A stretch of 64,000 nt of DNA from a virus. Lineage: Duplodnaviria > Heunggongvirae > Uroviricota > Caudoviricetes. The notes under the pieces are model-generated. The model did not search any database, had not been told where the DNA came from, and was given only the letters and a program-made list of their open reading frames with translations. Positions 26,388 through 29,772 of the stretch are shown one piece after another (within the stretch, counting starts at the first letter, position 1; each line of letters begins with the position of its first letter). The position numbers and the translations under genes were made by a program. The stretch lies in IMG/VR virus record IMGVR_UViG_3300021431_000077, positions 39,062 to 103,061 of that record; one strand, given 5' to 3'.

Positions 26388-26461
26388 CGGGTAGTAACCC
26401 AACTGGTAGAGGAATGGGGTTTAAACCCCCTTCAGTGTGGGTTCGAATCCCACCTGCCCGA
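26388..26461 (+). tRNA. tRNA-like element, 74 nt; canonical T-arm GTGGG-TTCGAAT-CCCAC and acceptor CGGGTAG/CTGCCCG; anticodon loop TTTAAAC (anticodon TAA?) with weak D-stem
   Basis: hand-folded; D-stem only 2 bp and class-I length conflicts with Leu identity. Confidence 0.45.
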
Positions 26462-26480
26462 TTAAAAATATGGTGTAATT

Positions 26481-27674
26481 ATGATTGAGATACAGGGAAA
26501 GTTTAATACAGCCAAGGTGTTCACCGACAGTATCGAACCCGAGGCTTACACACAGATATTGAACATGATGTGTCAGTGCTGGGCTAAGGACATGCAGGTT
26601 CGCATCATGCCCGACGTACATGCTGGAAAGGGGTGTACGGTCGGAACCACTATGACCATCAAGGACAAGGTTGTTCCTAACTTGGTCGGGGTGGACATTG
26701 GATGTGGTATGCTTGTCGCCAAGTTGAAAGACCGTTCGGTTGATTTCGACAAGTTGGATAAGGCAATCCGTGAACGGATTCCGTCTGGTAAGAGCCACCG
26801 TGAAAGCAAGCATTCGATGGCAAAGGACTTTCCTATCGAGGATATGATTGTCTACAAGGAAGGGCAGATGGAGTACACCGAGCTGTTGTCTCTCGGCAGT
26901 TTGGGCGGAGGCAATCACTTCTGCGAGTGCGACAAGGATTCCCACGGTAATCTGTACATCGTAATCCACTCTGGTTCCCGTCATCTTGGGTTGGCAACAT
27001 GTGATTACTGGCAGGGAATTGCAATCGACGAATGCAACGACCTTACGCAGCAGCGTGGGGCCATAATCACCAAGTACAAGAGTGAGGGCCGTGAAGATGA
27101 ACTTCCCGCAGCGTTGGCGAGCATCCCTCATTTCCCGCCTCCGAAGGAACTGTCTTACCTCACTGGCAAGTCGTTTGACGGATATCTGCATGACATGGCG
27201 TTGGCTCAGGAGTTTGCAACACGCAACCGTGAAGCGATGCTTGAAGAGATTGTCAGGGCGCTTCGCCTTCATGTTGTGGACAAGTTCTGTACATTGCATA
27301 ACTACATCGACTTGAAGCACATGATACTACGCAAGGGTGCAGTATCGGCTCAGGAAGGCGAGCGTCTTATCGTTCCTTTGAACATGAGGGATGGTTCTCT
27401 TATCTGCACAGGTAAGGGCAACCCTGACTGGAACTTCTCTGCTCCTCACGGTGCAGGCCGCAAGATGTCCCGTTCCAAGGCAAAGGAAAGCATTTCCCTT
27501 GAAGCTTACCAGAAGGCAATGCGTGGCATCTACACGACTTGTGTAAACAAATCTACTTTGGATGAATCCCCGATGGCATACAAGCCGTCAAAGGAAATCA
27601 TCGAGAACATCAAGGATAGCTGCGATGTTGTAGATACTATCAAGCCTGTGTACAACTTCAAGGCATCTGACTAA
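26481..27674 (+). CDS. rtcB: RtcB RNA 3'-phosphate ligase
   Basis: MPDVHAGKGCTVG metal-site motif and APHGAGRKMSRSKA (catalytic His) motif; 397 aa. Confidence 0.88.
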   Translation: MIEIQGKFNTAKVFTDSIEPEAYTQILNMMCQCWAKDMQVRIMPDVHAGKGCTVGTTMTIKDKVVPNLVGVDIGCGMLVAKLKDRSVDFDKLDKAIRERIPSGKSHRESKHSMAKDFPIEDMIVYKEGQMEYTELLSLGSLGGGNHFCECDKDSHGNLYIVIHSGSRHLGLATCDYWQGIAIDECNDLTQQRGAIITKYKSEGREDELPAALASIPHFPPPKELSYLTGKSFDGYLHDMALAQEFATRNREAMLEEIVRALRLHVVDKFCTLHNYIDLKHMILRKGAVSAQEGERLIVPLNMRDGSLICTGKGNPDWNFSAPHGAGRKMSRSKAKESISLEAYQKAMRGIYTTCVNKSTLDESPMAYKPSKEIIENIKDSCDVVDTIKPVYNFKASD

Positions 27675-27686
27675 ACGGAGGTAACT

Positions 27687-27974
27687 ATGGTTATCAAGAA
27701 AATCGACCTTACATCTGACAGGTTCGCCGAACAGAAAATCGTAATTCAATTGAATTACAGCGAGCTGACTAAGATTGCAAACGCAGTTCACAACATTAAA
27801 GTCAAGGACAAGGATGATGCTTGGCTCAAATGGGAATTTGCCGCTCTCCGTGACTTGTGCCACGATGAAGGGTTTATGACAGATTTCGCCCCTGCAACCA
27901 TCTTCCCTAGAATAATGAAAGAACTCAAGGCTGTTGAAAAAAAGCAGAATAAAAAGGAGACAACCAATGAATAA
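27687..27974 (+). CDS. hypothetical protein (95 aa)
   Basis: ORF track. Confidence 0.4.
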   Translation: MVIKKIDLTSDRFAEQKIVIQLNYSELTKIANAVHNIKVKDKDDAWLKWEFAALRDLCHDEGFMTDFAPATIFPRIMKELKAVEKKQNKKETTNE

Positions 27975-28134
27975 AGAAGACGCAGTCTTTTTTGCTGGAC
28001 AGATGGAAGATTTTCTGGATATTCCATCTATGTTCTGCGAAAAAATCGAGAAAATGCTGACCGAAGGAAAGGCAATGGAAGTGTGCGAGTACATTGTACG
28101 CCGTCGCAGGGAACTTGTTAAGAAAAAGGATTAA
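27967..28134 (+). CDS. hypothetical protein (55 aa)
   Basis: ORF track trimmed to ATG overlapping upstream stop. Confidence 0.35.
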   Translation: MNKEDAVFFAGQMEDFLDIPSMFCEKIEKMLTEGKAMEVCEYIVRRRRELVKKKD

Positions 28135-28136
28135 AT

Positions 28137-28337
28137 ATGAACGTAGAAGAACTCAAAGCCAAGCTCTGTGAACGTATTTCCGATACGGAATTGGACAAGA
28201 AATACAGGGTGGTCGTGGCCCGAAAGAAGAAGCGTGGTGGATATGATATCTACCCCTGTGTAAAGGATGTTGAACTGGCATACATTCCGATTCCAGGTGA
28301 AACTAATCCATGTGCCGCAATCGTATTTGAGGATTAA
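28137..28337 (+). CDS. hypothetical protein (66 aa)
   Basis: ORF track. Confidence 0.4.
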   Translation: MNVEELKAKLCERISDTELDKKYRVVVARKKKRGGYDIYPCVKDVELAYIPIPGETNPCAAIVFED

Positions 28338-28338
28338 T

Positions 28339-28587
28339 ATGTCTGACCGTAATGAATTTCATAATGACCTTGAAGTGTTTTGCTCTGCAAAGGAACACAA
28401 GGGAATGGTTCTTGAACTGATGAGGGTGTACGGCGAGTCTGTCACCTTGAAGGATGTCCTTGATAGCATCAACTACCAGATGGACAAGTACGAAAACCTA
28501 CTGTTCAATCATCATCTTTTGAAACCAGCAATCAACCTTGCTACTGCGGTCATGTCGTCTATCAACGACGTGAAGGAAACCAAATGA
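28339..28587 (+). CDS. hypothetical protein (82 aa)
   Basis: ORF track trimmed to MSDRNEF with RBS gaggatt. Confidence 0.4.
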   Translation: MSDRNEFHNDLEVFCSAKEHKGMVLELMRVYGESVTLKDVLDSINYQMDKYENLLFNHHLLKPAINLATAVMSSINDVKETK

Positions 28588-28754
28588 AAATCTACAACGT
28601 GTTCGCAGTATCTGGAATGGGTTACCACATGTATATGGCCACTTGTAAGACACGGGAGGCTGCTAACAAGTATATTGCAAAGCTCTGTAAGAAAGACCCT
28701 GCAATATACAAGAAATCCTACTTGAAGGTAAGGGTTGGGAAAATATTGGAGTAG
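28584..28754 (+). CDS. small hypothetical protein (56 aa), not in ORF track
   Basis: ATGA overlap with upstream stop. Confidence 0.3.
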   Translation: MKIYNVFAVSGMGYHMYMATCKTREAANKYIAKLCKKDPAIYKKSYLKVRVGKILE

Positions 28755-28757
28755 TTC

Positions 28758-28952
28758 ATGTGTAAGTATTGCGAACAGTTGGATGGACTTGGTTGCGGTG
28801 AAGACTTCACAGATGACGATAGTTGGACTGACCGTTTTCATCTGAGTAGAGACAGCGACGGTACATATCGTATCGAATGCTATGCAGACCAAAGTTCTCC
28901 AATCAATTTCTGCCCTAAGTGTGGGAGGCCGTTATGCGAAAAGAACTCATAG
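28758..28952 (+). CDS. zinc-ribbon protein (CxxC...CxxC)
   Basis: MCKYCEQ...CPKCGRPLC. Confidence 0.4.
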   Translation: MCKYCEQLDGLGCGEDFTDDDSWTDRFHLSRDSDGTYRIECYADQSSPINFCPKCGRPLCEKNS

Positions 28953-29188
28953 AAATTTTGCAGTGCAAACTAGAAGACTTTGCAATCGAATATCGCAACG
29001 AAAAGGCGAAGGGTAGCGAAGGAATCAGCATCCCCAATGCCGAACTCAAATACTACAAGGGGTATCTTGATGGGATGTGTTGTGCTTTGAATTGCAAGTC
29101 TTGGAAACTTGAAAGCGGATATTGGGTTGTTCGGGATGCCCGCAACCGCATCATAGCCACTTGTCAGGAATCTTGGGACGAGGAGTAA
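28934..29188 (+). CDS. hypothetical protein (84 aa)
   Basis: ORF track trimmed. Confidence 0.35.
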   Translation: MRKELIEILQCKLEDFAIEYRNEKAKGSEGISIPNAELKYYKGYLDGMCCALNCKSWKLESGYWVVRDARNRIIATCQESWDEE

Positions 29189-29190
29189 AT

Positions 29191-29772
29191 ATGAGAAGAC
29201 TGTTTATTATCAGAAAGGATTTGCAGCTGCATCCTGGAAAGTTGGCTGCAATGGTGGCCCACTGTGCCGAAGGGTACTGGCTAAACGTATTTAAGTATCT
29301 GAGCGTAGTCGAGGACAACGAATACGATACACTGCCAGTAGAAACTCCGAACGACCCTGATTACTGGATGCGTTATCGTCATCCTGCTGTATTTGAGGCG
29401 GCGAAAGCTGCTCACGAACGGGGTGAGAAAACATTTAAGTTCAAGGCGGAAAACTCCCGTCCTACGAAGACGATTTCGTTTGAAATCCCGAAAGAAATCT
29501 GGGATGGCTACATCAATGATATCTTCACGAAGACAATCTGCGAGGCAAAGAACCTTAACCATCTAATGAAGGTGGAAGAGGTCGCCAAGGAACTTGGTCT
29601 TGTCCCGCTCGTTGACTACGGGTATATCGACGATGTTTGCAAGACCGATTTGACCCCAGAGTTCACAGACGAGAACGGTGTAGGCCGTTGCCGTGTCGGA
29701 ATCTGGTTCAAACCGCTTTCTGACGAAATCAGCCATAAGCTGAGCAAGAAGTACCAGCTTTACAAGGGGTAA
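29191..29772 (+). CDS. peptidyl-tRNA hydrolase PTH2-like
   Basis: N-terminal RLFIIRKDLQLHPGKLAAMVAHCAEG resembles PTH2 core VVRTDLKMGKGKIAAQCSHA; RBS ggaggag. Confidence 0.5.
   Translation: MRRLFIIRKDLQLHPGKLAAMVAHCAEGYWLNVFKYLSVVEDNEYDTLPVETPNDPDYWMRYRHPAVFEAAKAAHERGEKTFKFKAENSRPTKTISFEIPKEIWDGYINDIFTKTICEAKNLNHLMKVEEVAKELGLVPLVDYGYIDDVCKTDLTPEFTDENGVGRCRVGIWFKPLSDEISHKLSKKYQLYKG

Follow-up and report, generated by a model that had tools for sequence, protein, structure and literature searches.

The window analysed here, a stretch of 64,000 nt from the IMG/VR virus record IMGVR_UViG_3300021431_000077 (Caudoviricetes; positions 39,062 to 103,061 of that record), harbours a block of genes in which a leucine tRNA gene, the RNA ligase gene rtcB and the gene of a protein resembling peptidyl-tRNA hydrolase 2 (Pth2) lie close together. 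The main features of the block are all encoded on the plus strand with very short gaps, i.e. pnuC, nadR, tRNA-Leu(UAA), rtcB, seven small open reading frames (ORFs) and pth2. Its first annotated gene, pnuC (24453..25229; PF04973 at 133.5 bits, phrog_1880), encodes a PnuC-type transporter of nicotinamide riboside or nicotinamide mononucleotide (NMN) and probably starts with the ATG at 24549. It is followed by nadR (25230..26375), whose product is a NadR-like NMN adenylyltransferase and ribosylnicotinamide kinase of nicotinamide adenine dinucleotide (NAD+) salvage (PF01467 and PF13521; phrog_3462 at 201.8 bits; TIGR01526 at 175.6 bits, under the equivalog cut-off). The stop codon of nadR is separated by 12 nt from the tRNA gene (26388..26461), which itself ends 19 nt before the ATG of rtcB (26481..27674); a preliminary description of this DNA had rightly placed the two close together, but its spacing of 20 nt was one too many. 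Seven tightly packed ORFs of 95, 55-57, 66, 82, 56, 64 and 84 aa (27687..29188) lead to pth2 (29191..29772). Compared with Pfam and PHROGs, these seven yielded nothing usable except a weak zinc ribbon and phrog_1494, the zinc ribbon (CxxC...CxxC) being the 64-aa product, and they are conserved (57-100 % identity) in only one of the related contigs, L002.

Since relatives of the RtcB protein, both close (94-97 % identical) and more distant (61-67 %), sit on IMG/VR contigs of 411-422 kb, the window represents DNA of a megaphage of about 420 kb. A collection of 50,697 phage records contained no close relative, the listed matches falling in the rtcB portion with 67-71 % identity. The pnuC-nadR pair belongs to the theme of phage NAD+ salvage, as NadR-type salvage has been described in medium-sized and jumbo phages (PMC9503650).

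The tRNA-like element of the preliminary description was called by ARAGORN as tRNA-Leu(taa) at 26387-26462, and when the whole window was compared with 4,227 Rfam families, RF00005 matched 26388-26461 over its full model (1-71) with 47.2 bits (gathering score 29, E = 5.7e-07). The 74 nt carry the perfect T arm (GUGGG-UUCGAAU-CCCAC), the acceptor stem (CGGGUAG/CUGCCCG, seven pairs including one G-U) and the TTTAAAC loop that had been claimed for them, whereas no CCA end is encoded. The anticodon loop UUUAAAC (positions 32-38) is closed by a 5-bp stem and presents U33, the anticodon UAA and A37. The Rfam score, the acceptor stem of 7 bp, an anticodon loop of 7 nt that has U33 and a purine at position 37, and a T-loop of the GTTCRA form qualify the element as a tRNA. 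The remark that the D-stem is weak was also accurate: only C11-G24 and C12-G23 form Watson-Crick pairs, flanked by A10·A25 and C13·A22. Reading the loop as that of an ochre suppressor, i.e. with UUA as the anticodon, was rejected, as the geometry of stem and loop together with U33 and A37 puts UAA at positions 34-36; moreover, each of the three stop codons terminates ORFs of the window, in which genes are packed at a normal density.

What sets this tRNA apart is its variable region. Canonical bacterial tRNA-Leu species are of type II, with a variable arm of more than 10 nt, and the variable loop found here (UCAGU) comprises only 5 nt, which is a type I architecture. To see how far this architecture extends, contigs were scanned with the pattern TGGTAGA-N10-TTAAA-N13-16-GGTTCGA, which calls for a D-loop of the Leu type, the anticodon UAA and few nucleotides in the variable region. 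The pattern occurred in viral contigs (at least 119) and in bacterial contigs (at least 120). Among the matches listed, 80 viral and 120 bacterial loci were examined with ARAGORN, which recognised a tRNA-Leu(taa) 74-80 nt long in 73 and 104 of them, respectively. Many of the bacterial matches listed belong to Actinomycetota, Alphaproteobacteria, Verrucomicrobiota and Planctomycetota, and one to an insect endosymbiont (Uzinura). We define the family by a length of 73-76 nt, the UAA anticodon, a 3-bp D-stem with C13·A22, a D-loop ending in TGGTAGA, a variable loop of 4-7 nt and A73, and the window tRNA shows every one of these features.

Among 138 unique type I tRNA(UAA) sequences, A73 and U8 are invariant and A14 nearly so (135/138), C13·A22 is found in 127 and a 5-nt variable loop in 119, while the pair 15:48 is A-U in 115 and G-C in 22, together 137 of the 138; G1·U72 occurs in about half of the family loci. 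In an alignment of 51 sequences, 97.7 % of the cells pair and 19 of 21 pairs vary on both sides, the two T-stem pairs that are fixed by the search pattern being uninformative in this respect. The covariation score was 0.897 compared with 0.215 for shuffled alignments (0 of 500 as high), and slid controls paired in at most 49 %. By these measures of sequence, type I tRNA-Leu(UAA) is a widespread and strongly covarying family of phage and bacterial contigs. This breadth is mildly surprising, given that type I tRNA-Leu is treated as rare in bacteria (PMC6614811). No earlier description of a type I tRNA-Leu in phages was found in the literature, the coverage of which was incomplete, so that this is weak evidence of novelty.

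Leucine is a reasoned assignment made by exclusion. Only the leucyl-, seryl- and alanyl-tRNA synthetases (LeuRS, SerRS and AlaRS) are known to disregard the anticodon. SerRS requires a long variable arm and AlaRS requires G3·U70; since the window tRNA has no long arm and G3·U70 is absent from it, both enzymes are excluded and the tRNA probably carries leucine. The identity elements of the Escherichia coli LeuRS listed in PMC6614811, i.e. A73, A14, A15-U48 and G18G19, are all present at 26388-26461. The nearest described counterpart is the type I tRNA-Leu(CAA) of Streptomyces coelicolor (Fan et al. 2019, NAR 47:6369; PMC6614811), likewise a bacterial-type leucine tRNA with a short variable loop that reads the UUR box, and charged by a bacterial LeuRS; that tRNA has a CAA anticodon and is chromosomal, whereas the window tRNA has UAA and is phage-borne.

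The closest relatives from IMG/VR have this tRNA gene as well. The tRNA is identical in contigs L003 and L004 (also fetched as L126 and L129), in which RtcB has diverged to 94 % identity. In L002 (RtcB 97 % identical), G31-C39 is replaced by A31-U39 through a double change, U10-A25 is restored and the UAA anticodon is kept, and in L151, a viral contig of 31 kb, a copy of the tRNA with 88 % identity shows another double change, C29-G41 in place of G29-C41. The weak D-stem is explained by the C13·A22 mismatch being a trait of the type I family; only A10·A25 (1/138) and U27·U43 (4/138) are mismatches that, on the present alignment, are peculiar to the window lineage, and further family-rare states are C-G at 1:72 (4/138) and U/C at 32/38 (7/138). 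A recent loss of the long arm from a megaphage type II tRNA-Leu(UAA) was considered and rejected: the window tRNA is 65-69 % identical to these genes of related megaphages, which measure 86-90 nt, and 74-89 % identical to its 14 closest other type I family members, which come from unrelated contigs.

The neighbouring gene encodes an RtcB ligase of the short bacterial type (397 aa), predicted to join RNA 3'-phosphate or 2',3'-cyclic phosphate ends to 5'-OH ends (PF01139 at 218.7 bits, cut-off 27; phrog_1075 at 445 bits). The two motifs that had been pointed out are indeed there, MPDVHAGKG at residues 43-51 and HGAGR at residues 323-327, and the active-site residues D45, H47, D72, C75, N145, H146, H163, H273, N274 and H323 are all in place. 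In the alignment to the Pyrococcus horikoshii enzyme, with numbers counted from PDB-chain alignments, D45/H47 (MPDVH) correspond to D65/H67, D72/C75 (VDIGCG) to D95/C98, N145/H146 (GGGNHF) to N202/H203, H163 (IHSGSR) to H234 and H323 (PHGAGR) to H404, while H273-N274 could be aligned only by way of the HN motif of Thermus thermophilus TTHA1785. We take D65, H67, D95, C98, N202, H203, H234, H329 and H404 of P. horikoshii RtcB to make up the two Mn2+ sites and the guanylylated histidine. Across 16 phage RtcB proteins, which are 47-94 % identical to that of the window, conservation of the corresponding residues is complete or no lower than 90 %. Cysteine or histidine substitutions of the kind that would render RtcB catalytically dead are absent: the metal-site and nucleophile residues are all kept and, by alignment, the catalytic determinants are intact. 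The protein nevertheless scores under the NCBIfam equivalog cut-off, with 140 bits against 407 for the general RtcB model.

The PTH2-like gene, which had been placed 1.5 kb past the rtcB stop codon, held up as well. Its 193-aa product passes PF01981 (30.8 bits, cut-off 23), and an AlphaFold2 model built with 31 homologues has a mean predicted local distance difference test (pLDDT) score of 92.4. In a Foldseek search of the PDB with this model, the first 14 matches were all Pth2/Bit1 structures, with target-normalised template modelling (TM) scores of 0.63-0.75 for matches 1-13 and 0.50 for match 14 (probability 1.00, then 0.93). In a profile alignment to Pth2 of Sulfolobus solfataricus, K17, D148 and T152 fall on K18, D86 and T90, presumably the catalytic lysine and aspartate and a neighbouring threonine, and none of the three varies among the 31 aligned family sequences. 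Relative to archaeal and eukaryotic Pth2 (PF01981; PDB 1xty, 1rlk, 3erj and 1q7s), the predicted fold agrees (Foldseek probability 1.00) and the motifs RxDLxLxxGKxxAxxxH, at the N-terminus, and D-x-x-K-T-x-L-x-P align, whereas identity is only 14-18 %, D-V/A-C replaces the DAG motif and an insertion of about 70 residues (approximately residues 33-100) follows the first helix, ahead of the remainder of the fold. This inserted subdomain is missing from some members of the family, which measure 146-165 aa. The family itself is large, comprising 2,154 metagenomic proteins at E <= 0.001 on contigs of up to 455 kb, and 111 of the 120 best matches were flagged by Pfam, 110 of them as PTH2. Sequence and model thus agree on a Pth2 fold and active site in a divergent subfamily, for which the substrate is not assured.

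The association between tRNA genes and rtcB recurs in other phages. By raw count, 50 of the 80 viral rtcB loci have one or more tRNA genes within 5 kb, in every case on the strand of rtcB, and the other 30 have none. The tRNA-flanked loci represent at least four lineages, i.e. the megaphages, a group at 53 % RtcB identity with Trp-Thr-Thr tRNAs, another at 48-50 % in which the tRNA is tRNA-Met, and a contig of 386 kb that carries a type II tRNA-Leu(UAA). In megaphage relatives with 61-67 % identity, arrays of 7-15 tRNA genes stand on the same strand as rtcB at a distance of 0.4-3 kb. Linkage of pth2 is looser: it was seen near rtcB in L002, in the same place as in the window, and in L012 and L013, 0.9 kb downstream, hence in two lineages only. 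The theme of tRNA repair and translation rescue put forward in the preliminary description matches what comparative genomics proposes for jumbo phages (PMC7824862), and rtcB loci with same-strand tRNAs recur, but the tight cluster drawn there is not supported, since pth2 adjoins rtcB only in these cases and the tRNA-Arg(CCG) counted with the set is 25 kb away.

In the contigs L003 and L004, an additional ORF of 119-134 aa without a known family (4615-5000) is found between the tRNA and rtcB, and the gene order downstream is rearranged, with a Band_7 gene on the opposite strand. Elsewhere, on megaphage contigs, seven other contexts of Pth2-like genes were inspected, in which DUF488-N3a occurred in four, YqeY/GatB-like proteins in two and nicotinate phosphoribosyltransferase (NAPRTase) in two. 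One of the two NAPRTase contexts, P0107, is an NAD+ cluster with a PF09414 RNA ligase, while another context, P0044, has Thg1 and NUDIX. The full NAD+ cluster found with a Pth2-like gene consists of NAPRTase, the PF09414 RNA ligase, a radical SAM protein, an R2K ATP-grasp enzyme, an NMN adenylyltransferase (NMNAT)-like protein, NadE and nicotinamidase. For the insertion-bearing Pth2 subfamily, with its more than 2,000 metagenomic members, the gene neighbours thus suggest contexts of both RNA repair and NAD+ metabolism.

The second tRNA gene named in the preliminary description, a canonical tRNA-Arg(CCG) at 52694..52768 on the plus strand, is real (ARAGORN; Rfam 57.1 bits), but it lies outside the block, 25 kb downstream of the rtcB stop codon at 27674, and none of the ORFs scanned around it has a Pfam family. 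Codon supplementation was rejected as the reason for either tRNA, because the codons are rare and no gene is enriched in them. UUA accounts for 97 of the 1,555 leucine codons in the window (6.2 %, or 5.1 per 1000 codons) and is the second-rarest leucine codon after CUA, UUA and UUG together making up 26 %; CGG is the rarest arginine codon, with 7.2 %. No gene in the window is notably enriched in UUA or CGG. The usual explanation, that phage tRNAs match the codons preferred by the phage, misfits both tRNAs.

Taken together, we consider it probable, at roughly 60 %, that the block is a translation-maintenance set that keeps translation running during infection. With gaps of only 12 and 19 nt on its two sides, the tRNA has no space for signals of its own; it would be part of a polycistronic transcript shared with its neighbours and be processed out of it. 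A scan for sigma-70 promoters and terminators between 22 and 31.5 kb, which did not cover the promoter types of other organisms, gave no convincing signal from pnuC to pth2, and this weakly backs co-transcription of the block. RNase P and the 3'-end enzymes of the host would then excise the tRNA, the host CCA-adding enzyme would complete it, and the host LeuRS would most likely leucylate it for the decoding of UUA and UUG. RtcB, in turn, would use guanosine triphosphate (GTP) and Mn2+ to rejoin 2',3'-cyclic or 3'-phosphate ends to 5'-OH ends, such as are left in tRNA, and possibly rRNA, by metal-independent host RNases (anticodon nucleases, ribotoxins). The Pth2-like enzyme may hydrolyse the ester of peptidyl-tRNA, or of N-acyl-aminoacyl-tRNA, released from stalled ribosomes and so return the tRNA to the pool. 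Seen this way, the window offers a clean and compact example of very large phages bringing means of their own to keep tRNAs usable. The set is largely ordinary, as the kit has already been described for jumbo phages, and the modest extra interest lies in the type I tRNA-Leu.

The sequence shows what each part is, that the catalytic or structural determinants are intact and that tRNA genes recur next to rtcB, whereas joint transcription, leucylation, the substrates and the purpose suggested in the preliminary description, a defence against host anticodon nucleases, are what we infer. Several points weigh against such a translation-maintenance set. Pth2-like genes are absent within 5 kb of rtcB in the 94 %-identical relatives L003 and L004 and in the L006 group, and most other Pth2-like contexts show no adjacency to rtcB. 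The Pth2-like protein stays far under the equivalog cut-offs (30.1 against 126 bits for PRK04322, 22.8 against 82 bits for TIGR00283), and with so low a score and its insertion it could have a different substrate. As regards the tRNA, codon supply is a weak reason for its presence, the mismatches A10·A25 and U27·U43 are rare in its own family, and charging by the host LeuRS is not assured: nearly all bacterial tRNA-Leu are of type II, and only the Streptomyces LeuRS, among the bacterial enzymes tested, charged both types (PMC6614811).

The most serious alternative, although we regard it as rather unlikely, is that the genes are not functionally coupled at all, i.e. that the tRNA, rtcB and pth2 are independent accessory genes gathered in the same early or middle regions of huge phages, the tRNA serving plain decoding, RtcB general RNA upkeep and Pth2 housekeeping. 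The inserted ORF, the inverted Band_7 gene and the missing pth2 in relatives whose RtcB is still 94 % identical would fit such loose association, as would the 30 of 80 rtcB loci lacking a nearby tRNA and the Pth2-like contexts, since we count six of the seven further ones as having neighbours outside RNA repair (albeit P0107 among them has the PF09414 ligase), with Thg1 in the seventh. Chance gathering fits less well with same-strand proximity of rtcB and tRNA genes in at least four lineages whose RtcB is only 48-67 % identical to that of the window, and with Pth2-like genes standing beside three RNA-repair enzymes, namely RtcB, the PF09414 ligase and Thg1. Accident could plausibly account for the position of pth2; for that of the tRNA it is a less plausible explanation. 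It is also conceivable, though improbable, that the ribosome is the target, Pth2 and RtcB acting in the manner of PrfH-RtcB2 by freeing the nascent chain and resealing 16S rRNA cut by a ribotoxin. PrfH and RtcB2 rescue and repair colicin-E3-damaged ribosomes sequentially (PMC9304027), and the window RtcB gives a partial match to the PrfH-associated model TIGR03073. That match, however, reaches 106.9 bits, far under the cut-off of 271.8, and is outscored by the general RtcB model PRK09588; the block contains no release-factor-like gene, and the conserved neighbours of rtcB are tRNA genes. In addition, Pth2 acts on free peptidyl-tRNA and not inside the ribosome.

Two further explanations concern the relation between RtcB and tRNA more directly. 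The preliminary description had proposed that the odd tRNA could be a decoy or substrate, or else degenerate. As a decoy or dedicated substrate it would engage either RtcB or an anticodon nuclease of the host, and the weak D-stem, the U27·U43 mismatch, the uncommon U32/C38 and the rarity of the UUA codon might be quoted in favour of such readings. We find them very improbable, given that C13·A22 is the norm of a covarying family, that A73, U8, A14, A15-U48, G18G19, U33 and A37 are canonical, and that relatives retain the anticodon, compensate stem changes (L002 and L151), restore U10-A25 (L002) or carry the identical tRNA (L003 and L004). By sequence, the window tRNA is best read as an ordinary working member of the type I family, neither degenerate nor a decoy. 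Least credible of all is a role of RtcB in the maturation of phage tRNAs, ligating the exons of intron-containing, split or permuted tRNAs as in archaea and animals. While rtcB does stand beside large tRNA arrays in relatives, and some of these tRNAs are 86-90 nt long, they owe the extra length to an extended variable arm or to an acceptor stem of 8 bp. An intron search with ARAGORN found none, and intron-bearing or split tRNAs were accordingly rejected as substrates of RtcB; the window tRNA is a continuous 74 nt, and no splicing-endonuclease family is among the Pfam hits of the block.

A set of tRNA repair and rescue functions is best known from jumbo phages, where tRNAs have been described as backed by RtcB-type or ATP-grasp RNA ligases (Iyer, Anantharaman, Krishnan, Burroughs, Aravind 2021, Viruses 13:63; PMC7824862), and where a PTH2 of archaeo-eukaryotic type was proposed to free tRNAs in ribosome rescue, with Thg1 occurring sporadically (PMC7824862). 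The window shares tRNAs, RtcB and PTH2 with these sets, but gathers the parts on one strand in a single block, in which 19 nt separate the tRNA from rtcB, and its tRNA-Leu is of type I and its Pth2 carries the insertion of about 70 aa. The Rtc system of bacteria (RtcR-RtcA-RtcB of E. coli and Salmonella) has been linked to tRNA halves with 2',3'-cyclic phosphate termini (PMC7790460). Its RtcB is of the short bacterial type also seen in the window, where the ligase scores under the equivalog cut-off; the ORFs that were scanned from 12.8 to 37 kb include neither the RtcA cyclase nor the RtcR regulator with its CARF domain. PrfH-RtcB2 (PMC9304027) likewise pairs an RtcB ligase with a peptidyl-tRNA-hydrolysing factor, but PrfH is a release-factor homologue that works on the ribosome, whereas the partner in the window has the unrelated Pth2 fold. 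In the window, moreover, the two genes are 1.5 kb apart with seven ORFs between them, the ligase is not an RtcB2 equivalog, and no member of the release-factor family was found among the ORFs of the block that were scanned. Since the defining partners are absent, the window set falls outside both the Rtc operon and the PrfH-RtcB2 module. In phage T4, Pnkp and Rnl1 repair tRNA-Lys cut by PrrC, through healing of the ends followed by an ATP-dependent ligase, a system cited in both PMC7824862 and PMC9503650. The proposed logic in the window would be alike, a phage enzyme resealing an anticodon-loop cut made by a host defence nuclease, except that RtcB joins 3'-phosphate or 2',3'-cyclic phosphate ends directly to 5'-OH with GTP.

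Related megaphages, with RtcB 64-66 % identical to that of the window, encode oddly built tRNAs beside rtcB (L006, 1695-1784; L012, 1562-1651 and 9230-9315; L015, 2849-2935). They comprise a Cys(GCA) and a Gln(UUG) tRNA of 90 nt each, an 86-nt Asn(GUU) tRNA whose acceptor stem has 8 bp and whose variable arm is long, and an 87-nt Met(CAU) tRNA, likewise long-armed, that has C1·U72. Where such an arm goes with an anticodon outside Leu, Ser and Tyr, the tRNA recalls allo-tRNAs or the nev-tRNAs of nematodes and, by analogy, might be mischarged. Judging by these tRNAs and by the type I tRNA-Leu, phages of this kind may be unusually free in how their tRNAs are built. It is tempting to speculate, as a decidedly long shot, that type I tRNA-Leu(UAA) is an architecture that moves between phages and bacteria and provides a replacement decoder of UUR codons which, being built unlike the host's own long-arm tRNA-Leu(UAA), evades a nuclease or other factor recognising that host isoacceptor, and which in this megaphage is co-expressed with a ligase that reseals tRNAs. 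If so, tRNA architecture, with an arm lost here and long arms gained on Gln, Asn, Cys and Met tRNAs, would form a layer of the translation conflict between phage and host. In any case, the family offers a ready natural set of sequences on how LeuRS recognises tRNA-Leu without a long arm.

The remaining ORFs of the window are mostly without a Pfam family, and those with one include a phage-borne, compact CRISPR-Cas locus (15421-20901). It consists of a Cas3 HD-helicase (15421-17709; Cas3 HD and core domains), a Cas7fv-like protein (17809-18807; NF040577 at 52 bits, below the cut-off), two ORFs without a family (18810-19769 and 19773-20327) and an array at approximately 20328-20901 of ten repeats with a 61-nt period, the repeat being about GTTTCCCGTGTGTGCGGGAATTGAAA. 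No Cas1 or Cas2 was seen near the locus, which looks like a type I-F-variant system. Further upstream, a UDP-galactopyranose mutase (7371-8633) precedes a QueC-like protein (8995-9963) and then a radical-SAM protein (9981-10943), a pair that could serve 7-deazaguanine (preQ0) synthesis for the modification of DNA or tRNA, and a TPM-domain protein and LemA are encoded at 12795-14205. On the minus strand, a ClpX-type AAA+ unfoldase with a zinc finger (20944-22191) lies upstream of the block, and an SPFH/Band_7 protein (31511-32458), a DUF1848 protein (33045-34040) and an ATP-cone protein (36560-37162) lie downstream of it, while an R2K-clade ATP-grasp enzyme is found at 56096-56821.

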